Source of the DNA: an uncultured Clostridia bacterium
GTDB lineage: Bacteria; Bacillota; Clostridia; Christensenellales; UBA1242
DNA length: 64,000 nucleotides
Direction of reading: 5' to 3'
Assembly: GCA_944381145.1 (NCBI GenBank)
Contig: CALWJZ010000001.1
Span: 136,635-200,634 of the forward strand
The notes beneath the pieces were generated by a model. The model had not been told where the DNA came from and did not search any database. It was given only the letters and a program-made list of their open reading frames with translations. Below are positions 5,683 to 63,408 of this stretch, in pieces. The position numbers and the translations under genes are program-made. How positions within the stretch are numbered: position 1 is the first letter of the stretch; the number at the start of each line of letters is the position of its first letter.

Positions 5683-6738
5683 TTACAAAATTAAGGTTGC
5701 ATCACCAAAACTAAAAAATCTATATTTTTCTTTAACAGCAGTATTATAAATTTGCATTGTTTCATCATAACCACAAAAAGCAGAAACTAACATAATGAGT
5801 GTACTTTCTGGCAAATGGAAATTTGTAATTAATGCATCAACCATTTTAAATTTATATCCAGGATAAATAAAAATGTCTGTTTCTTTTTTACATGCATGAA
5901 TAATTCCATTATTGTCAGTTGCACTTTCTAAAACTCTTACACTTGTTGTGCCAACAGCGATTATTCTTCGGTTTTCACTTTTTGCTTTATTTAAAATTTC
6001 AGCGCTTTTGTCTGATACTTCTATATATTCGCTATGCATTTTATGATTAAGAATATTATCTTCATTTACAGGACGAAATGTACCAAGACCTACATGTAAC
6101 AAAACTTCTACTATTTCAACACCTTTTTCTTTTAATTTTTGAAGTAATTCCTTAGTAAAATGCAAACCAGCTGTAGGTGCTGCACTACTGCCAGTAAATT
6201 TGTTATAAACTGTTTGATATCTATTTTTATCTTTATATTGATTTTTAATATATGGAGGCAAAGGCATAATGCCTATTTGGTCTATAATTTGTTCAAATAC
6301 TCCTTCAAAATCAAATCTAATTATTTTACCTCCAAACTCAGTATTACTCAAAACTTCGCCTTTTAATTCATCAGAAAAATAAATAATAGTACCATTTTTT
6401 AGTCTTTTACCAGGTTTTGCAAGTACTTCCCATGTGTAAAAATCAATTCTTTTTAGTAATAATACTTCAATAATTGCTCCTGTATCTTTTTTACCAAATA
6501 ATCTTGCAGGAAGTACTCTAGTATTATTAACTACAAGCACATCTCCACTATGAAAATAATTAATTATATCACTAAATATTTTATGTTCAATTTGTCCACT
6601 ATCTCTATGATAAACTAGAAGCCTAGAACTATCTCTAGGTTCTTTAGGTGTTTGAGCTATAAGTTCTTCTGGTAAATCATAGAAATAAGTTTTTGTATTC
6701 ATTAAATCGTAATTATTCTTGTTCATTTTTTTCGTCAC
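5683..6738 (-). CDS. queA: S-adenosylmethionine:tRNA ribosyltransferase-isomerase (start may be 6726 or 6702)
   Basis: [51 protein letters not shown]. Confidence 0.96.
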
Positions 6739-7771
6739 TTTCGATAAATAATTTTAAATATTCTTGAGTTTTTGAGGATATTTTTTTCCCTAAATGTTTG
6801 TATGCATTTGGCAATACTACTCTTCCCCTTGGAGTCCTAGCAATAAAGCCTAATTGCAAAAGATATGGCTCATAAACATCTTCAATTGTGTTTGCATCTT
6901 CTCCTGTGGCAGCAGATAAAGTATTCAAACCAACTGGTCCACCATTAAATTTGTCAATGATTGTTTCAAGAAGTATTCTATCAGTAAAGTCTAGACCTAA
7001 ATCATCAACTTCAAGAATTTCAAGAGAATTTTTGCAAATATTATAATCAATCTTATTACTACCAGAAACTTCAGCAAAATCCCTAATTCTTTTTAATAAT
7101 CTATTTGCAATTCTAGGAGTCCCTCTACTTCTTTTTGCAAGTTCAATACAAGCATCTTTATCAATTGGAGTACCTAGGATATTTGCACTTCTAGTAATAA
7201 TCTTCGATAATTCTTCTGTAGAATATAATTCAAGTCTACAAACTACTCCAAATCTATCTCTAAGTGGACCTGTAAGCATACCAGCCTTAGTAGTTGCTCC
7301 AATTAATGTAAAAGGCTCTACATTAATTCTCATAGTTCTAGCACCAGGTCCTTTCCCCAAAATAATATCCAAAGCAAAATCTTCCATAGCAGGATAAAGA
7401 ACTTCTTCAACAGAACGACTAAGTCTATGAATTTCATCAATAAAAAGGACTTCGTTTCTTTGCATATTGCTAAGAATACTTGCTAAATCAGCTACTTTTT
7501 CAATAGCAGGTCCACTTGTAATTTTTATATTAGTTCCTAATTCGTTTGCTATTATATGAGATAAAGTTGTCTTTCCAAGTCCTGGAGGACCATATAGTAA
7601 GACATGGTCAAGAGCATCTCCTCTTTGTTTTGCTGCTTTTATATAAATATTCAAATTTTTTTTGATTTTTTCTTGTCCTACATACTCACTCATAGTGGTA
7701 GGCCTTAAAGTATTTTCTACTTCAGACTCACTTAAATTTTTTGTAGAGGTTATAAATCTTTCTTCTTCCAT
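6713..7771 (-). CDS. ruvB: Holliday junction branch migration ATPase RuvB
   Basis: LRP...[40 protein letters not shown]. Confidence 0.98.
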
Positions 7772-7778
7772 AATTTCC

Positions 7779-8369
7779 TTATTTGCTTAAATTTTTCAAA
7801 CATTTTTTAATAATTTCTTCAGTTGTATCTTCTTGTTCTGCAACATTTTTTACAATTTGTGTGGCATTGAATCTTGTTAAACCCATAGCAACAAGTGTTT
7901 CAATAGATTCTTCTACTACATTAGAAGTTATAGATATGCTATTGTTAGACGATATACTTAACTGCAAATCATCGAAAGTATTTTTTAAATCAACAATTAT
8001 TCTTTCTGCTGTTTTTTTACCCAAACCCTTTACTGATGATAAAAGCCTAATATTTTCACTAACAATTGCATCAATCAAATTTGTCACAGGCATAGCCGAA
8101 AGTATAGTAATTGCCATTTTTCCACCGATTCCACTAACACTTGTAAGTTTCAAAAATACAGCCTTTTCTTCTTTAGTAGCAAAACCAAACAATGTTATAG
8201 CATCTTCCCTAACTGCCATATATGTATGTAATGTGGCAACTTCTCCAATATTTGGTAATTCATATATAGTAGTTTCACTAACATTAAGTTCAAAACCAAC
8301 ACCATTACAATTCAAAACTACTAAATTATTTTCTTTTTCTTCTATTGTTCCAGTAATAAATGAAAACAT
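7779..8369 (-). CDS. ruvA: Holliday junction DNA-binding protein RuvA
   Basis: [39 protein letters not shown]. Confidence 0.96.
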
Positions 8370-26881: not shown

Positions 26882-29350
26882 CTAAATTTGTTCTAAGCAA
26901 TATGCCTCTAAAATATCACCAACTTCAATATCATTGAAATTTTTAAGTTTAATACCACATTCATATCCTAATTTAATAGTTTTTACTTGATCTTTTTGTT
27001 GTTGAAGAGTATCTATAGCAGTATCAAATACAACTTCACCCTTTCTTATAACTCTAATAGAACTATCTCTATTAATATATCCATCAGTAACGTAACAACC
27101 TGCAATATTACCAATACTACTAATTTTGAATATTTGTCTAATTTCAGCATGACCTGTAATTACTTCTTCAAATTTTGGCGTTTGCATTCCATTTATAATA
27201 TTAGTAATATTATCAACTGCTTCATAAATAATTTTGGTTAATATAATTTGAACTTTATTTTTTTCAGCAAGTTGTTTTGCTTTTGCTTCAGGTTTTACAT
27301 CAAATCCAACTATTATAGCTTTACTAGCAATAGCAAGAATAACATCACTTTCATTTATACCACCTACTGCAGAATGAATAACTTGCACTTTTGCCTCTTC
27401 ATTATGAATTTTTTCAAGTGTAGTTTTCAATGCTTCGCAAGAACCTTTTACATCTGCTTTTATAATAACTTTTAGCACTTTTATCTCGTGATCAGCAGAT
27501 TGTTGTAAGAAATCTTCTAGAGTTATGCCATTATTTTTTTCAAGTTTCTCAATTTGTAATTTACTAGTTCTTTCTGCAACGATATTTCGTGCCATCTTTT
27601 CATCAACTACATAAGCCATATCACCTGCTTCTGGACAAACATCGAAACCTAATACTGATACTGGCATACTTGGACCTGCAGATTTTACACTTTTGCCGTT
27701 GTAATCTACCATTGCTCTGATTCTTCCAGATGCAACGCCACTAACCATAAAATCACCAATATGAAGTGTTCCATTTTTTATAAGTATAGTTGCAACTATT
27801 CCTCTACCTTTATCAACCTTACTCTCTAAAATAGTACCACTTGCTTCTTGAGTACTATCTGCTTTTAATTCTAATATTTCAGCAACAAGCAAAACAGCTT
27901 CTAGTAATTTATCAATATTTTGGTTTTTCTTTGCAGAGATAGGAACACAAATTACATCTCCACCCCATTCTTCACAAACAACATCATATTCAGTAAGTTG
28001 CTGTTTAACTCTATCAACATTGGCTTCTGGCTTGTCAATCTTATTTATTGCAACAATCATAGGTACTCCAGCAGCTTTTATATGATTGATTGCTTCTATA
28101 GTTTGAGGCATAATACCATCATCAGCTGCAACTACCAAAATTGCAATATCAGTAAGTTTTGCACCTCTTGCTCTAATAGCAGTAAAAGCTTCATGACCAG
28201 GAGTATCAATAAATGTTATAGAATTATTATTATAAACGACTGAATATGCTCCAATATGTTGAGTAATTCCACCTGCTTCACCTTGAATAACGTTAGTGTT
28301 TCTTATTGCATCCAACAAAGAAGTTTTACCATGATCAACATGCCCCATTACAGTTACAACTGGTGGTCTTGGCTCTGTTGCATTAGATTGATTATCAAAC
28401 ATTTCGTGTAATTTTTCTTCATAGTTTTTACTAATTTTTTGTTCTAACGTTACACCAAATTCTTGAGCTACTAGTTCAGCAGTTTGAAAATCTATAACAG
28501 AATTAATGTTAGGCATCATTCCAAGCATCAAAAATTTTTTGATTATATCAACAGCTGGTTTTCCAATTTTTTCTGATAATATTTTTACAGTTAGATTTTC
28601 TGTGTCAATGACAGCTCTGTCTATATTTTGTTTTTCAACAACAACTTGTGGTTTAGGTTTTTTAATCTTTGTTCTAACTCTGCCCATTCTTTCTTCGCCG
28701 TCTAAATCATAATCGTTGTCTATATCTATATAGCCCATTTTTATTTTAGCTTTTTTGCTTAATTCTTTCTTTTCTGTATCGAATTGTTTAGTTTTGTTTT
28801 TATTGCCAAAGTTTCTGTCTTTCTCAGTTTTTGCAATTAAAGGTTCTACAATATCAGTTTTGTTTAATTTTGGTTTATAACCGTTATTATCTCTTGGTAC
28901 AAAAGGCTTTTTATCAAACGATTTATTTTGATTAAAGTTATTTGATTGTTGCTTTTGATCTTTATTGAATTTATTGTCTTTTTGATTAAATTTAGAAAAT
29001 TTAGAATTATCAAAGTTAGTTTTATCTTTTCTAAAGCCTTTATCAAAAGATTTTAATTCATTTGATTTATTTGTGCTGAAAGTAGTAGGCTGTTTCTCAA
29101 TGTCTTTTTTTATATTTGTTGAAGTTACATTTGCCTCTTTGATATCATTATTAGTCTGGATACTGATATTGGCTTTCTTTAACTTGTCTTCGTATTCTTT
29201 TAAATTTTTACAAAAAGTATCCAAAGACATTTTTGACTTTGAAATATTAGAAACCATAGTACTTAATTCTTTACCACTTATGATTCCACTTAACTTTTTT
29301 AAATTTTCAAAAGAAACTGATTTTTGTTTATTATTTTCTTTATTTTCCAA
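26882..29350 (-). CDS. infB: Translation initiation factor IF-2
   Basis: RPPVVTVMGHVDHGKTSLLD, GGITQHIGA, DTPGH, NKID; TTG start. Confidence 0.98.
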   Translation of the reverse strand: MENKENNKQKSVSFENLKKLSGIISGKELSTMVSNISKSKMSLDTFCKNLKEYEDKLKKANISIQTNNDIKEANVTSTNIKKDIEKQPTTFSTNKSNELKSFDKGFRKDKTNFDNSKFSKFNQKDNKFNKDQKQQSNNFNQNKSFDKKPFVPRDNNGYKPKLNKTDIVEPLIAKTEKDRNFGNKNKTKQFDTEKKELSKKAKIKMGYIDIDNDYDLDGEERMGRVRTKIKKPKPQVVVEKQNIDRAVIDTENLTVKILSEKIGKPAVDIIKKFLMLGMMPNINSVIDFQTAELVAQEFGVTLEQKISKNYEEKLHEMFDNQSNATEPRPPVVTVMGHVDHGKTSLLDAIRNTNVIQGEAGGITQHIGAYSVVYNNNSITFIDTPGHEAFTAIRARGAKLTDIAILVVAADDGIMPQTIEAINHIKAAGVPMIVAINKIDKPEANVDRVKQQLTEYDVVCEEWGGDVICVPISAKKNQNIDKLLEAVLLVAEILELKADSTQEASGTILESKVDKGRGIVATILIKNGTLHIGDFMVSGVASGRIRAMVDYNGKSVKSAGPSMPVSVLGFDVCPEAGDMAYVVDEKMARNIVAERTSKLQIEKLEKNNGITLEDFLQQSADHEIKVLKVIIKADVKGSCEALKTTLEKIHNEEAKVQVIHSAVGGINESDVILAIASKAIIVGFDVKPEAKAKQLAEKNKVQIILTKIIYEAVDNITNIINGMQTPKFEEVITGHAEIRQIFKISSIGNIAGCYVTDGYINRDSSIRVIRKGEVVFDTAIDTLQQQKDQVKTIKLGYECGIKLKNFNDIEVGDILEAYCLEQI

Positions 29351-29936: not shown

Positions 29937-31061
29937 TTAATTCAAGTCATCAAAAGCATCTTCATTATCAAATAAATTATCATAATTATTTTCAGAATTA
30001 GAATCATCAAGATTCAAAGAAGGTACAGCACTTTTTGCCTTGACATCAATCTTCCAACCAGTAAGTCTTGCAGCAAGTCTTACATTCTGACCAGATTTTC
30101 CAATTGCAAGGCTTAATTTGTCATCTGGAACAACAGCCAAAGAAGTTTTATCTTCGGTATTAGTATGAATGTATAATACAGTGGCAGGACTAAGTGCAGA
30201 AACAATATATTCACCTGGTACATCACTATATGGAATAATATCAATTTTTTCTCCATTTAGTTCGTTAACTATTTCGTTAACCCTCATACCTTTGTTACCA
30301 ATACAAGCACCAATACAATCTAATGATTTATTATCACTGTAGACTGACATTTTTGTTCTATAACCTGCTTCTCTAACGATATTTTTGATAACAATTTCTC
30401 CATTAGCTATTTCAGGTACTTCAAGTTCAAACAATTTTTTAACAAAACTAGCAGAGCTTCTAGATAATTGCACATAGGACATATTATATTTGTCCCTAAT
30501 ATTTTTTACAACCACTTTTATTCTATCATTAATTTTATATTTCTCACCAGGTATTTGATCTTTTAATGCCAACACACCTTCAATTTGTGTCATACCAAGG
30601 TCAACATAAACATTATCACCTTCTATTCTTCTTATAATTCCAGTAACAAGTTCATCTTGTTTTGTATTTACCTCGTCCATAACTTTGTTTCTTTCAGCTT
30701 CTCTCAATCTTTGCATAACAACTTGTTTAGCCGTTTGAGCAGCAATTCTTCCAAAATTTTTAGTTGTTTCTTCTTGTTGAACGACATCTCCAACTTTATA
30801 ACTTTTTTTAATCAATTTAGCCTCTGCCAAACTTATTTCTTTATCACTATCCAAAACTTCATTTACTACAGTTTTGTAAGAATAAATTTTAATAGTATTC
30901 TTTTCTGGATTAAGTTTTACAAAAGCACTTTTAGCTTCACCAAAATTTTTCTTATAAGCACTAGTAAGTGCAGTTTCTAATGCCTCTATAAAATATTCTT
31001 GATTAATACCTTTTTGTTCTTCTAAATCTTTTAGTGCTTGAAAAAAATCTTTGTTTATCAT
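29937..31061 (-). CDS. nusA: Transcription termination factor NusA
   Basis: FGRIAAQTAKQV, REAGYRTK, GACIG, SLAIGKSGQNVRLAA. Confidence 0.98.
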   Translation of the reverse strand: MINKDFFQALKDLEEQKGINQEYFIEALETALTSAYKKNFGEAKSAFVKLNPEKNTIKIYSYKTVVNEVLDSDKEISLAEAKLIKKSYKVGDVVQQEETTKNFGRIAAQTAKQVVMQRLREAERNKVMDEVNTKQDELVTGIIRRIEGDNVYVDLGMTQIEGVLALKDQIPGEKYKINDRIKVVVKNIRDKYNMSYVQLSRSSASFVKKLFELEVPEIANGEIVIKNIVREAGYRTKMSVYSDNKSLDCIGACIGNKGMRVNEIVNELNGEKIDIIPYSDVPGEYIVSALSPATVLYIHTNTEDKTSLAVVPDDKLSLAIGKSGQNVRLAARLTGWKIDVKAKSAVPSLNLDDSNSENNYDNLFDNEDAFDDLN

Positions 31062-31070
31062 ATATTCCTC

Positions 31071-31532
31071 CTAAAAATCCAAGTGTGCACAAATATTTGC
31101 TATTAAATTTCGTTCAATCGAAATACATTCGTTATTATATTTTACATTAATAGAGTTTTGATTAAAACTTAAAAGCGTAGCAATTATCATTTTTTCATTA
31201 CAAAATGGTTTATAAAATTTAATATCAACCATTTTGTTCAAATGCTTATTAAAGTCATAATCAGTTTTAAAATTTCTATCAAGTCCATATGATGATACAT
31301 TAAAATTATATGATTGCCCATTAGTAATATCGTTATCATCAAGGGGTTTGTCCAAAGCCTTTGAAACCTTTTCACAATCATTAATTGTAATACCATTAGG
31401 GCTATCAATTGTTAACGCTAAAACATAACCACTAAATTCTTTTTTGTACTCCAAATCGACAAAAATATAACCTAAATTTTCAACAATAGGCTTGATAATC
31501 TTGATAGCTTTATCAACAACTCTTAAACTCAT
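31071..31532 (-). CDS. rimP: Ribosome maturation factor RimP
   Basis: IDSPNGITINDCEKVS, YNFNVSSYGLDR. Confidence 0.93.
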   Translation of the reverse strand: MSLRVVDKAIKIIKPIVENLGYIFVDLEYKKEFSGYVLALTIDSPNGITINDCEKVSKALDKPLDDNDITNGQSYNFNVSSYGLDRNFKTDYDFNKHLNKMVDIKFYKPFCNEKMIIATLLSFNQNSINVKYNNECISIERNLIANICAHLDF

Positions 31533-31671: not shown

Positions 31672-33228
31672 TTATGTAATATGAGAACTTAATTTTATTA
31701 CAACATCTGCTGTTGCCATTGCATCAAAAACTGCTCTATGTGCATTTTCTAATGATATTCCTAATTTTTTACAAACTGTAGATAATTTAAAGTTTTTAAG
31801 TCCAGGTATAAATGCTCTAGCTAAATAAAGAGCATCTATTTGTTTATTATCAAAAATATAACCACTCTTTTTCCCAAACAAATTTATAAATTTATAGTCA
31901 AAATCTATATTATAGGCAATAATAGTACAATTATAACAAAATTTATAAAAATCAGCTATGACATTTTCAATATTGGGTGCATTAATTACCATATTATTAG
32001 TTATCCCAGTTAAAGCAGTTATTTCTTCTGGAATATTCCCTTTTGGTCTTACAAAAGTCTCAAATGTTTCAAATTTTTTCCCTTGTTTTAGTTTTATAGC
32101 ACCTATTTCAATTATTTCACATTTACTAGCTTCTAGCCCAGTTGTTTCTATATCAAATACTACAACATCATTATTTAGTAAATATTCTCCTACATTATCA
32201 GACTGTTCAAAAAGATTACTTTGAATCATTTCATTATATATTTCAGGAAATACAACTTTATATTTTTCATTTGGTTCTTTTTTTATAATAATATTCTCAA
32301 CGTTGTCTTCATCAACTCTTGTGCAAAATGCCAAGGAATTAACTTTCAAGTTTAGTCTACCATTAAATTCTTCTACATTGCCTCTGACAATAATGTAATC
32401 ATCATCTTTTAAAATTAACATTTTATTTAAATCAGCTTTATTAGGAAAACATACACAATTAATCCTGCCAGTTTTATCGATTATATTAAAACTATAATAT
32501 GTTTTAATTACATTATTTCCATCTTTATCAATTCTTTTACTTTCAAAATTTTTTTGTGTTAAAAACTTAATAATGCCTGAAATTTCAATATTTTCAATAG
32601 TATTTTTAATTGAAGAAATTTCTATTGGGCAACCATTAATTTCGCCAATAATATTATTTATATTTTCAACTTTATATGATTTTATTAAATTTTCACTACT
32701 AGAATTATATATAGATTCTAATAAAGATTGATTATCATCAATTGTATATTCTTCAATATTTTCCCCATTTTCAATAAATTTAACTTCTAAATTAAAAGGC
32801 TCAAAAAAGAACCCTTCACCATAATCTAATATTTCTTTTTTTACATTAGAATTAGATAAATAATTGTATATAAACTTATTACAATTAATTGTAACAAAAA
32901 TTTCATTTGCAATTTCGACTTTAATTTGCTCTTTATTTAAATTAACTGCAACACTTGCAAAATTTTTTTTTATAAAGTTATAGACAACTTCTCTTACTAA
33001 ATCACAATCTATATATGCCTTTTTGCATTTAACAATTATATTTACATCTTTATTTATATATTGTTTAATGAGATTTGTAAGTATTTGTTTGTCTTCATTT
33101 TTTATTTCATTTTTATAAAGAAATTTAAAAATCAAATCATGCGACTTTTCATCAAAAATAACACTTACAAGTTTGAAATCAATGTAAGCGTTATTGGTCT
33201 TGTTGTTAATAAAATCGAGTAGTTTCAT
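31672..33228 (-). CDS. PolC-derived protein: N-terminal domains + OB fold + DnaQ-type 3'-5' exonuclease, no PHP or polymerase domain
   Basis: OB segment YSFNIIDKTGRINCVCF...IIVRGNVE; exo motifs VVFDIETTG, YNIDFD, HRAVFDA; stops at 518 aa; occupies the polC position between rseP and rimP. Confidence 0.8.
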   Translation of the reverse strand: MKLLDFINNKTNNAYIDFKLVSVIFDEKSHDLIFKFLYKNEIKNEDKQILTNLIKQYINKDVNIIVKCKKAYIDCDLVREVVYNFIKKNFASVAVNLNKEQIKVEIANEIFVTINCNKFIYNYLSNSNVKKEILDYGEGFFFEPFNLEVKFIENGENIEEYTIDDNQSLLESIYNSSSENLIKSYKVENINNIIGEINGCPIEISSIKNTIENIEISGIIKFLTQKNFESKRIDKDGNNVIKTYYSFNIIDKTGRINCVCFPNKADLNKMLILKDDDYIIVRGNVEEFNGRLNLKVNSLAFCTRVDEDNVENIIIKKEPNEKYKVVFPEIYNEMIQSNLFEQSDNVGEYLLNNDVVVFDIETTGLEASKCEIIEIGAIKLKQGKKFETFETFVRPKGNIPEEITALTGITNNMVINAPNIENVIADFYKFCYNCTIIAYNIDFDYKFINLFGKKSGYIFDNKQIDALYLARAFIPGLKNFKLSTVCKKLGISLENAHRAVFDAMATADVVIKLSSHIT

Positions 33229-33242
33229 AAAAATCCTTTTCT

Positions 33243-34304
33243 TTAGAACAAAAATAAATGCAATATATCTACTAAAATTACTAAACCAAATAGCAAGATT
33301 AAACCTATAGTATGAATTTTTGCTTCAATATTTCTAGGTACTGGCTTTCGAAATATCCATTCTATAAGTACAAAAACCATTCTCGCACCATCTAATGCTG
33401 GTATAGGCAAAAGGTTGAAAACTGCCAAATTAACTGCGATTAAAGGGAAAAGAAGAACTAAATTTTTTATACTTGCTTGTGTCGAGACTGCTATAGTTTG
33501 TATTGTAGTTATAGGTCCTCCAACACTCTCCAATCCAATTTGTCCAGTCAACAAATCACCAAGAATGACTAAACATTCCCAAGCCATATTAAATGTGTAA
33601 GGTACACATTTAAGTAAACCTTTACCAAAACTATATTTTACATATTCAGTTGTAACGCCAATAATTTTTGATTGTACAATTTTTTCTCCATTTTTATCTA
33701 ATACATAATTGCCATCACTATCTACTTGATATTGTTCATATTTCTGTACTTTGACATCAATAATCTCACCATTTCTATCTATTGTAAGAACAATATCTTC
33801 TCCAACATCTTTATCACTCATAAGATTAATAATTCCACCATTCAAAAATGTTGGTTCGACACCATCTACTTCTAAAATAATATCATTTTTTCTCAATACA
33901 TTTTCATTTCCATTTGTTGCAACAACACTGTCAATTTGAACAATTCCTGACCCAACACTAATAAGAAGAATGAGTGTAAATAAAATGCCTGAAATTAAAT
34001 TAAACAAAGCCCCTGAAGCCAAAACGATTAATCTTTTCCAACAAGGATAAGAATTAAAACAACCTTCTTCATTGCCTTCTTCATCTTCACCTTTAAATGC
34101 ACAATATCCACCTAAAGGAATCCATCTCAAACTAAAAATTTCGCCACTTTTTAATTGTTTACTAAAAATTGCTTTGCCAAAACCAATTGAATATTCTTCA
34201 ATCTTAAATTTAAGCATTTTACCCGCTAAATAATGACCTGTTTCGTGAATCATAATCATTAGTAGCAACACAACTATAGCAAGTATTACATAAAGAACTA
34301 TCAT
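33243..34304 (-). CDS. rseP: RIP metalloprotease RseP/RasP (M50 with PDZ)
   Basis: IHETGH (HExxH), IPLGGYC, NLLPIPALDG. Confidence 0.95.
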   Translation of the reverse strand: MIVLYVILAIVVLLLMIMIHETGHYLAGKMLKFKIEEYSIGFGKAIFSKQLKSGEIFSLRWIPLGGYCAFKGEDEEGNEEGCFNSYPCWKRLIVLASGALFNLISGILFTLILLISVGSGIVQIDSVVATNGNENVLRKNDIILEVDGVEPTFLNGGIINLMSDKDVGEDIVLTIDRNGEIIDVKVQKYEQYQVDSDGNYVLDKNGEKIVQSKIIGVTTEYVKYSFGKGLLKCVPYTFNMAWECLVILGDLLTGQIGLESVGGPITTIQTIAVSTQASIKNLVLLFPLIAVNLAVFNLLPIPALDGARMVFVLIEWIFRKPVPRNIEAKIHTIGLILLFGLVILVDILHLFLF

Positions 34305-62937: not shown

Positions 62938-63235
62938 TCTATCAAGCGTCACAGGTACACTCCCGTACCAGTCATGACTTTAGTCATGTGGAGACTTTGT
63001 CTCCTTTCAAGTCTGGGCACAAAAAAAAAGAACCTGTTGGTTCTTTTTTGGTGCTGGTGACCATGACTTGGTGCAGAAAGTGTATTACACTTTCAAATTA
63101 GCGCAGATAGTCTCTATCAAGCGTCACAGGTACACTCCGTGCCAGTCATGACTTTAGTCATGTGGAGACTTTGTCTCCTTTCAAGTCTGGGCACAAAAAA
63201 AAAACCTGTTGGTTCTTTTTTGGTGCTGGTGACCA
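62938..63235. repeat. Tandem direct repeat (~125 bp, period ~175 bp) containing the tRNA-Leu 3' end, its terminator and multiple short hairpins
   Basis: Copies at 62938-63063 and 63113-63235 differ only at a few positions (tcccgtacc vs tccgtgcc; A-run plus g). Confidence 0.92.
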
Positions 63236-63307
63236 GACTTGAACTGGTACGGTTGTTACACCGCAGGATTTTAAGTCCTGTGCGTCTGCCGATTCCGCCA
63301 CACCAGC
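63221..63307 (-). tRNA. tRNA-Leu (TAA), CCA encoded
   Basis: GCTGGTG acceptor stem, CAGGA-CTTAAAA-TCCTG anticodon arm, long variable arm, TTCAAGT T-loop. Confidence 0.96.
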
Positions 63308-63333: not shown

Positions 63334-63408
63334 TGGAGGCACCTCTCAGATTCGAACTGAGGCATGAGGGTTTTGCAGACCCGGGCCTTACCACTTGGCT
63401 AAGGTGCC
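63334..63408 (-). tRNA. tRNA-Cys (GCA), CCA encoded
   Basis: GGCACCT acceptor stem, GGGT-CTGCAAA-ACCC anticodon arm, GTTCGAAT T-loop. Confidence 0.96.

Follow-up and report, generated by a model that had tools for sequence, protein, structure and literature searches.

PolC is treated as the universal and essential replicase of low-GC Gram-positive bacteria, and it is a protein of about 1400 amino acids (aa) in which the exonuclease is inserted inside the PHP domain and is followed by the polymerase core. The beta clamp is a dimer with two pockets, as has been established for E. coli alpha-beta-epsilon, and the QTSMAF clamp motif of epsilon follows its exonuclease domain. The published surveys, which were made from complete genomes, distinguish three systems, namely DnaE1 only, PolC plus DnaE1 and PolC plus DnaE3 (PMC3919608, PMC12926913), and the earlier of the two (Timinskas et al., NAR 2014, PMC3919608) records PolC variants without the exonuclease insert as well as 'some' Clostridia with DnaE1 only, and shows that the clostridial PolC plus DnaE1 system is evolutionarily plastic. 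It is also an accepted idea that in Bacillus subtilis the PolC exonuclease proofreads for DnaE in trans (ref. 97 in PMC12926913). Here we describe a gene at the polC locus of an uncultured chicken-gut Clostridia bacterium of the order Christensenellales, which lies in a 64,000-nucleotide (nt) stretch of contig CALWJZ010000001.1 that we refer to as the window. The product of this gene, for which we use the working name short PolC (sPolC), is almost certainly a functional, PolC-derived protein that lacks the polymerase and belongs to a clade that replicates with DnaE1 alone.

The sPolC gene occupies 31672..33228 on the minus strand, as do all the sPolC features given below, and it has an ATG start and a TAA stop at 31672-31674. 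When coordinates and neighbors were checked, the original prediction, which was made from the sequence alone, was found to be right in placing an open reading frame (ORF) of 518 aa with a clean TAA between rseP and rimP. A Pfam scan of sPolC gave an OB match (tRNA_anti-codon, PF01336) at residues 243-299 with 35.4 bits (cut-off 27) and an RNase_T match (PF00929) at residues 356-509 with 109.5 bits (cut-off 24), and it gave no PHP (PF02811) and no DNA_pol3_alpha match (PF07733 palm/NTPase, PF17657 fingers, HhH), nor did the Pfam PolC NI/NII models match at E<=1. The best NCBIfam model was that of PolC (PRK00448/NF001688), which matched over its positions 414-587 and weakly over positions 9-320, but the cut-offs of the PolC equivalogs were missed by a wide distance, with 187.1 against 873 bits for NF001688 and 150.2 against 1043 bits for TIGR01405. 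The cut-off of the epsilon family TIGR00573 was passed (105.7 against 71.5 bits) and that of TIGR01406 (dnaQ_proteo) was missed (91.8 against 222.7 bits). In a MAFFT alignment with 7 full-length PolCs of the same order, the N-terminal domain (NTD) and the OB fold of sPolC were collinear with those of PolC. Thus the Pfam scan, the alignment and the NCBIfam models agree with the earlier suggestion of a PolC-derived N-terminal/OB/exonuclease protein with an intact DEDDh site. The N-terminal half of PHP ('ELHLHT...AITDHG') is replaced in sPolC by a linker of 48 aa, close to the 50 or so that had been predicted between OB and exonuclease, and exonuclease motif III is almost the last element of sPolC, so that the second PHP half, which would have started there, is absent too; according to the alignment and the structural model the end is 6-7 residues past the last helix of the exonuclease domain.

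The resulting protein begins with the NTD (residues 1-154, 32767..33228), in which alignment and AlphaFold2 (AF2) modeling show a tandem pair of alpha/beta (KH-like) subdomains, the homologues of PolC NI and NII, and continues with a flexible connector (residues 155-179, 32692..32766) that is variable in alignments and has a predicted local distance difference test score (pLDDT) of <50. Next come the OB fold (residues ~180-304, 32317..32691), which is supported by PF01336, the alignment and the fold match to 9qpc_A, the linker (residues 305-352, 32173..32316), which the alignment places where the N-terminal half of PHP would be, and the DEDDh (DnaQ-type) 3'-5' exonuclease domain (residues 353-518, 31675..32172), on which Pfam, NCBIfam and the fold match agree. 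The first beta-hairpin of the OB fold (FESKRIDKDGNNVIKTYY; residues ~205-245, window 32500-32620) is about 10 residues longer than that of full PolC, and its basic stretch, with the consensus SFxSKRKDxxGN, was present in all short forms and absent from full PolC. The AF2 model of sPolC, which was built from an 81-sequence alignment, had a mean pLDDT of 91 and a predicted template-modeling score (pTM) of 0.49, and in it the connector 155-179 was disordered; this indicates that the individual domains are modeled with confidence and that their mutual orientation is uncertain. In a Foldseek search the best match of this model was E. faecium PolC (9qpc_A, E 1.9e-18, 378 columns covering OB plus exonuclease), further matches were the exonuclease of T. 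maritima PolC (2p1j) and E. coli epsilon (E ~1e-9), and the DinG exonuclease, ExoX, ExoI and RNase T were also among the matches. When the NTD was modeled alone it gave two tandem alpha/beta units with a pLDDT of 94.9, and a fold search with it retrieved only weak tandem KH/BON-like matches, with E 2e-4 or worse and TM-scores of 0.25-0.45. NI and NII of PolC have been described as a pair of KH-like subdomains that share a distant relationship with tau domain V (PMC3919608), and the weak matches of the modeled NTD fit this relation without proving it. In the same source the PolC NTD is proposed to contact the clamp loader, and in the 2025 cryo-EM structures of PolC the NTD was not resolved (PMC12592400).

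All the catalytic residues of the DEDDh exonuclease are in place in sPolC (D359, E361, D444, H497 and D502), and the motifs quoted in the original prediction were found at the expected coordinates: motif I, VVFDIETTG with D359 and E361, at 32137-32163, motif II, AYNIDFD with D444, at 31897-31917, and motif III, HRAVFD with H497 and D502, at 31723-31740. These residues (DEDHD) were intact in 177/177 sampled short forms. The residue at codon 501 (window 31727-31728), which sits between the catalytic H497 and D502, is F here (HRAVFDA), and it is His in three other assemblies of the species (TTT>CAT), which is the consensus of the family (HRAVHDA).

The original description of the protein was accurate as far as it went but it overlooked a conserved motif in the linker that resembles a clamp-binding motif. 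Full PolCs end in a C-terminal QLSLF-type clamp motif (16 of 17), and sPolC does not have it because the truncation removed the polymerase end. What sPolC has is Q336-S-N-L-F340 (32209..32223), which lies 22 residues before exonuclease motif I. The pattern Qxx[LFMIV][FLMIY] was found upstream of motif I in all of 121 database homologues, at a distance of 22-23 residues in 120 and of 6 in one, with QDNLF being the commonest version, and it was likewise found 16-24 residues before motif I in 43/43 short forms at named loci. In about 47 full-length PolCs the motif was absent from this position, except for two chance occurrences of QTEFI at -6. Every short form examined that is catalytically intact had Qxx[LFM][FL] some 22 residues ahead of the exonuclease. 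The motif is exclusive to the short forms, and QSNLF is likely to be a clamp-docking motif at a new position.

The short form is not peculiar to this genome. All of the 24 other genomes of the genus (24/24) had the form of ~520 aa and no full PolC, and no full-length polC was found at this locus in these genomes or in 16 further families. Among 201 genomes of the order that were >=90% complete and represent 39 families, a full PolC, mostly of 1320-1650 aa, was present in 99 and the rest had the short form only, and this division was consistent by family, with 17 families having the short and 22 the full form. Hence the survey of related genomes that had been proposed shows the short form to be kept genus-wide and across 17/39 families. 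Full PolC was present in 282 of 300 genomes sampled from the class, and the 18 without it were made up of 11 from this order and 7 others; at least two and perhaps three of these 7 (of ~290 genomes outside the order) were assembly breaks, and so the loss of PolC outside the order is rare. Three of the class (G290, G317 and G441 of genus g173 in family f73) had no canonical PolC and a normal DnaE, together with a protein of ~1090 aa that gave only weak matches to positions 22-421 and 590-738 of the PolC model, and this may be a second and different PolC reduction. In the protein database there were >1800 homologues of sPolC, of which the best 120 were mostly 510-530 aa long and 38-99% identical. 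Among short forms at named loci the identity fell to 27%, from which we conclude that the truncation is ancient. When a tree was built from the N-terminal region of DnaX in 37 genomes of 31 families, the 22 short-form genomes made up one clade (bootstrap 100%, 99% in the Shimodaira-Hasegawa-like approximate likelihood ratio test, SH-aLRT) that was nested among full-PolC genomes, in a DnaE tree the short-form genomes were on one side of a single branch (SH-aLRT 100), and in a tree of the NTD-OB-exonuclease columns a branch supported at 100% separated all 44 short forms from the full PolCs. All short forms had both deletions, the longer OB hairpin and the motif in the linker. Judged from these trees and shared characters, the truncation of PolC is a single old event.

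The genome is a metagenome-assembled genome (MAG) of 1.2 Mb in 38 contigs that is 99.87% complete. DNA_pol3_alpha had one match in the whole genome, in a protein of 1180 aa that passed the DnaE models NF005298 (1454 bits, cut-off 1260) and NF004226 and has the DnaE1 architecture of PHP, palm, fingers, HhH and C-terminal OB, with an intact PHP motif HHDHEHCDH and an internal clamp motif QFSLF at residue 922; an internal QxSLF near residue 920 was present in DnaE1 of all the genomes examined. The profile search of the whole genome found no PolC-type PHP/polymerase remainder, and sPolC was the only match to PF00929, the DnaQ-type exonuclease, in this genome. The single C-family polymerase is thus DnaE, and with no complete polC elsewhere the DnaE-only replisome that had been suspected is borne out. 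The other suggestion, that sPolC is one half of a split PolC, has to be given up, as the one C-family gene besides it encodes a complete and standard DnaE, which has a PHP domain, a C-terminal OB and an internal clamp motif of its own and is not a PolC remainder. In the genome (G000) dnaE lies on contig C8 (L010) directly downstream of whiA and a stand-alone PHP-family protein of 243 aa (6998-7990 and 6258-6989, respectively), and it is followed by pfkA. On contig C15 (L170) dnaX is split into an ORF at 544-1692 (382 aa, domains I-III) and, 11 nt later, an ORF at 1704-2069 (121 aa) whose homologue in the genus-mate G021 is the C-terminal domain of a fused DnaX of 498 aa (L171 524-2020), and open dnaX frames of 383-399 aa in G013, G015, G018 and G055 suggest the same split; in all other families of the order DnaX was 502-706 aa long except in G040 (388 aa). 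A dnaX frame of 390 aa in this genome led us to consider whether the tau-like NTD of sPolC replaces a lost C-terminus of tau, and we rejected this because the C-terminal domain is present as the separate ORF of 121 aa and because in the remaining short-form families DnaX was, almost without exception, 502-617 aa long (G040 has 388 aa).

That sPolC could be an artefact or a decaying gene, produced by an assembly break, by a recent nonsense mutation or by the splitting of polC, is brought to mind by the 38 contigs of the MAG, but it is a reading to which we give next to no credence. The ORF lies with both its neighbors inside a contig of 204 kb, and the same short form was present in genomes of 2-7 contigs (G021, G015 and G018). 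In chicken-gut metagenomes that other studies had assembled independently, contigs covered rseP-sPolC-rimP without rearrangement and differed by substitutions only, and the 21 variants listed in the ORF comprised 11 synonymous and 10 non-synonymous ones with no stop or frameshift (pN/pS ~0.21). This within-species test was added because dS was saturated (>1) in comparisons between species; within the genus dN/dS was 0.07-0.30 overall, 0.05-0.17 for the exonuclease and 0.15-0.44 for the NTD. The sPolC gene is under purifying selection. The 139 nt between sPolC and rimP are non-coding and therefore hold no PHP or polymerase remnants. Taken with the two separate deletions that all members share and with the clade-wide survey, these results leave no place for an assembly artefact or a recent nonsense mutation, as the original prediction had argued for the latter, and what had been named there as capable of overturning it, a full-length polC in close relatives, decay, an assembly break or downstream remnants, was in no case found.

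How sPolC would work can be pictured as follows. It descends from the ancestral polC in its original place by loss of both PHP halves and of the whole polymerase, with retention of the NTD and its proposed contact to the clamp loader, the OB fold, which binds single-stranded DNA (ssDNA), and the DEDDh exonuclease. The ancestral C-terminal clamp peptide was lost with the polymerase and QSNLF would now serve from the linker before the exonuclease. In a cell whose chromosome is presumably replicated by DnaE1 alone, the internal QFSLF of DnaE1 would occupy one pocket of the dimeric clamp and QSNLF of sPolC the other, an arrangement that is plausible because the clamp dimer offers two pockets, and the NTD and the OB fold would provide extra anchoring. 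The exonuclease could then trim mismatched or frayed 3' ends in trans, by analogy with E. coli epsilon beside alpha. A part of the selected function must be non-catalytic, either scaffolding or the handling of DNA, because two sub-lineages keep the protein with a dead exonuclease. On balance we lean towards reading sPolC as an epsilon-like exonuclease that is tethered to the clamp as an accessory of a DnaE1-only replisome and has a scaffolding role besides; that it binds the clamp, is present at the fork and edits the products of DnaE1 is what we infer from its sequence.

Several observations weigh against this reading. The PHP signature HHDHEHCDH of DnaE1, which the 2026 survey scores as an 'active' proofreader (PMC12926913), was intact in 21/21 genomes, 11 with the short form and 10 with full PolC, so that a separate proofreader is not obviously needed, and the idea that the PHP site of DnaE1 was inactivated in sPolC lineages had to be rejected since it is intact in short-form and full-PolC genomes alike. 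The putative clamp motif is a sequence pattern, and the linker residues 321-350 had a pLDDT of 82-95 (82 at QSNLF), which means that the motif may pack on the exonuclease domain and not be a free docking peptide. Tau domain V was not retrieved by the fold search with the NTD model, and the saturation of dS mentioned above limits what comparisons between species can say. Above all, in families f25 and f39 (genera g42 and g71) orthologues at the syntenic position, 495-550 aa long, had other residues at all five catalytic positions, as in D359H/E361N in f39 genus g42; these have open frames at the rseP-x-rimP-nusA locus (L146-L159), and most of them keep the Qxx[FL] pattern. Because f25 and f39 were not grouped together in the DnaX tree and one f39 genus still has a live exonuclease, the exonuclease was probably inactivated on at least two occasions without loss of the protein, and to judge from the replaced residues its activity is dispensable in these lineages. 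It follows that selection acts on a function that belongs to the NTD-OB-linker part itself and, together with the complete PHP site of DnaE1, that proofreading cannot be the only function under selection. The proofreading or editing subunit of the original prediction thus retains the support of the intact DEDDh but not as a sole function. Compensation of the dead lineages by a stand-alone DnaQ was considered and did not hold up as a clean rule; G048, G147, G197, G092 and G156 have one but many others do not, and extra exonucleases were also present in lineages with a live sPolC exonuclease. Some f25 and f39 genomes had separate DnaQ-like ORFs of ~200 or ~440 aa.

The same dead orthologues, kept at one locus by two families placed apart in the DnaX tree, speak for the main rival reading, in which sPolC is mainly a scaffold that keeps the architectural place of PolC, with contacts to the clamp loader through the NTD, to ssDNA through the OB fold and to the clamp through the motif, while the PHP site of DnaE1 proofreads and the exonuclease is an optional extra that was lost in some lineages. 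The intact PHP site in every DnaE1 examined, the purifying selection on the NTD and OB fold and the NTD-clamp loader contact proposed in PMC3919608 would all agree with it. We nevertheless hold it to be rather unlikely. In this lineage selection clearly maintains catalysis: no part of the protein is more strongly conserved than the exonuclease (dN/dS 0.05-0.17), every sampled member has the catalytic residues intact (177/177), and the genome has no other DnaQ-type exonuclease. A different possibility is that sPolC acts in repair or nucleic-acid turnover away from the fork, as do ExoX, the N-terminal exonuclease of DinG or RNase T-like enzymes, that the polC locus is merely inherited and that QxxLF is structural. 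The name '3'-5' exoribonuclease' that database homologues of sPolC carry, the fold matches to DinG exonuclease, ExoX, ExoI and RNase T and the high pLDDT around QSNLF point this way, but the PolC-specific NTD and OB fold have been retained in their sequence along the protein and under selection, the motif occurs in exactly those lineages that lack the C-terminal clamp motif of PolC and keeps a constant spacing to the exonuclease, and the closest relatives in both sequence and fold are the exonuclease domains of PolC, for which reasons we see only a small chance of its being right.

Compared with the known systems, sPolC shares with PolC (NF001688/TIGR01405; E. faecium 9QPC/9QRN, G. kaustophilus 3F2B) the rseP-polC-rimP-nusA locus, the order of NTD, OB and DEDDh exonuclease and the best sequence and fold match, but with 518 aa instead of ~1420-1470 it has neither half of PHP, no palm, thumb or fingers, no HhH and no C-terminal QLSLF, and it has Qxx[LF][FL] in the linker between OB and exonuclease and a longer OB hairpin. 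With E. coli epsilon (DnaQ; 5FKV, 2IDO) it has in common a stand-alone DEDDh exonuclease beside a DnaE1 replicase and a clamp-type motif adjoining the exonuclease domain, but it is of independent origin, a reduction of PolC and not a dnaQ gene, the motif comes before the exonuclease and not after it, the C-terminal peptide that binds the PHP domain of alpha is missing and the NTD and OB fold are additional; moreover, the PHP site of DnaE1 is here of the active type, which that of E. coli alpha is not. In B. subtilis the exonuclease resides in an active PolC and its partner DnaE3 has an inactive PHP, whereas here there is no PolC polymerase and DnaE1 has an intact PHP. Relative to the PolC without exonuclease that PMC3919608 records, sPolC is the reciprocal case, in which the exonuclease, NTD and OB fold were kept and the polymerase was lost. 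We found no published description of an sPolC-type protein in the literature on PolC, on this order and on ibezapolstat, and it is not mentioned in the searched passages of PMC3919608 or of the 2026 survey PMC12926913. These surveys drew on complete genomes, and the single-contig genomes of the order, among which cultured members such as Christensenella would fall, all had full PolC.

The locus itself is that of polC. Upstream is rseP (33243..34304, minus strand), the conserved upstream neighbor of polC, and because its stop is at 33243-33245, with the ATG of sPolC 14 nt after it, sPolC is probably co-transcribed with cdsA-rseP; a ribosome-binding site, AAAGGA, was read from the sequence at 33234..33239 on the minus strand, 5 nt 5' of the ATG. 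On the other side the order is rimP-nusA-ylxR-ylxQ-infB, with rimP, the conserved downstream neighbor of polC, at 31071..31532, nusA at 29937-31061 and infB at 26882-29350, all on the minus strand. The synteny rseP-x-rimP-nusA-infB was found in 43/43 short forms at named loci. Promoter and terminator scans at sPolC gave nothing above shuffled background, and an Rfam scan around sPolC for a leader or riboswitch found nothing except two tRNAs at 63.2-63.4 kb. These tRNA genes lie on the minus strand at 63224-63307 and 63337-63408, and the GC skew of the window flips sign at ~60-62 kb. At positions 1-60000 of the window nearly all genes are on the minus strand, and on the plus strand the GC skew was -0.18 to -0.33 and the AT skew was mostly negative. 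Genome-wide, ~75% of crude ORF calls followed the predominant strand of their contig, and with one switch per contig allowed the share was 83%. The gene-strand bias and purine asymmetry that are typical of PolC-bearing bacteria therefore persist without a PolC polymerase.

What these data mean is that a large and mostly uncultured clade of gut bacteria has dropped the PolC polymerase and has long kept the rest of the protein under selection with what is likely a new clamp motif. As a natural 'separation of function' allele, sPolC offers access to the poorly understood NTD and OB fold of PolC, it is a testable model for the origin of stand-alone epsilon-type proofreaders, and it is a handle on proofreading by PHP versus DnaQ nucleases in Clostridia. 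The causal link that has been proposed between the PolC polymerase and strong gene-strand bias is weakened, because ~75-83% of the genes of this genome are still co-oriented. These commensals should lack the target of ibezapolstat and other PolC inhibitors, a point of relevance to the claim that drugs of this kind spare the microbiome. We would go one step further tentatively, with a proposal that we rate as possible and a little short of probable, namely that a deep clade making up about half of the order (17/39 sampled families, almost all of them uncultured gut bacteria) has an undescribed replisome in which DnaE1 is the only polymerase and an obligatory sPolC, composed of an NTD resembling tau domain V, an OB fold, a new peptide for docking to the clamp and a usually active exonuclease, bridges clamp loader, clamp and template DNA. 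Since the exonuclease died twice and the protein stayed, the bridging role would then be the essential one, and if this proposal is true a two-polymerase replisome would have collapsed into a one-polymerase one, in which a core of the alpha-beta-epsilon type was re-created by domain loss.

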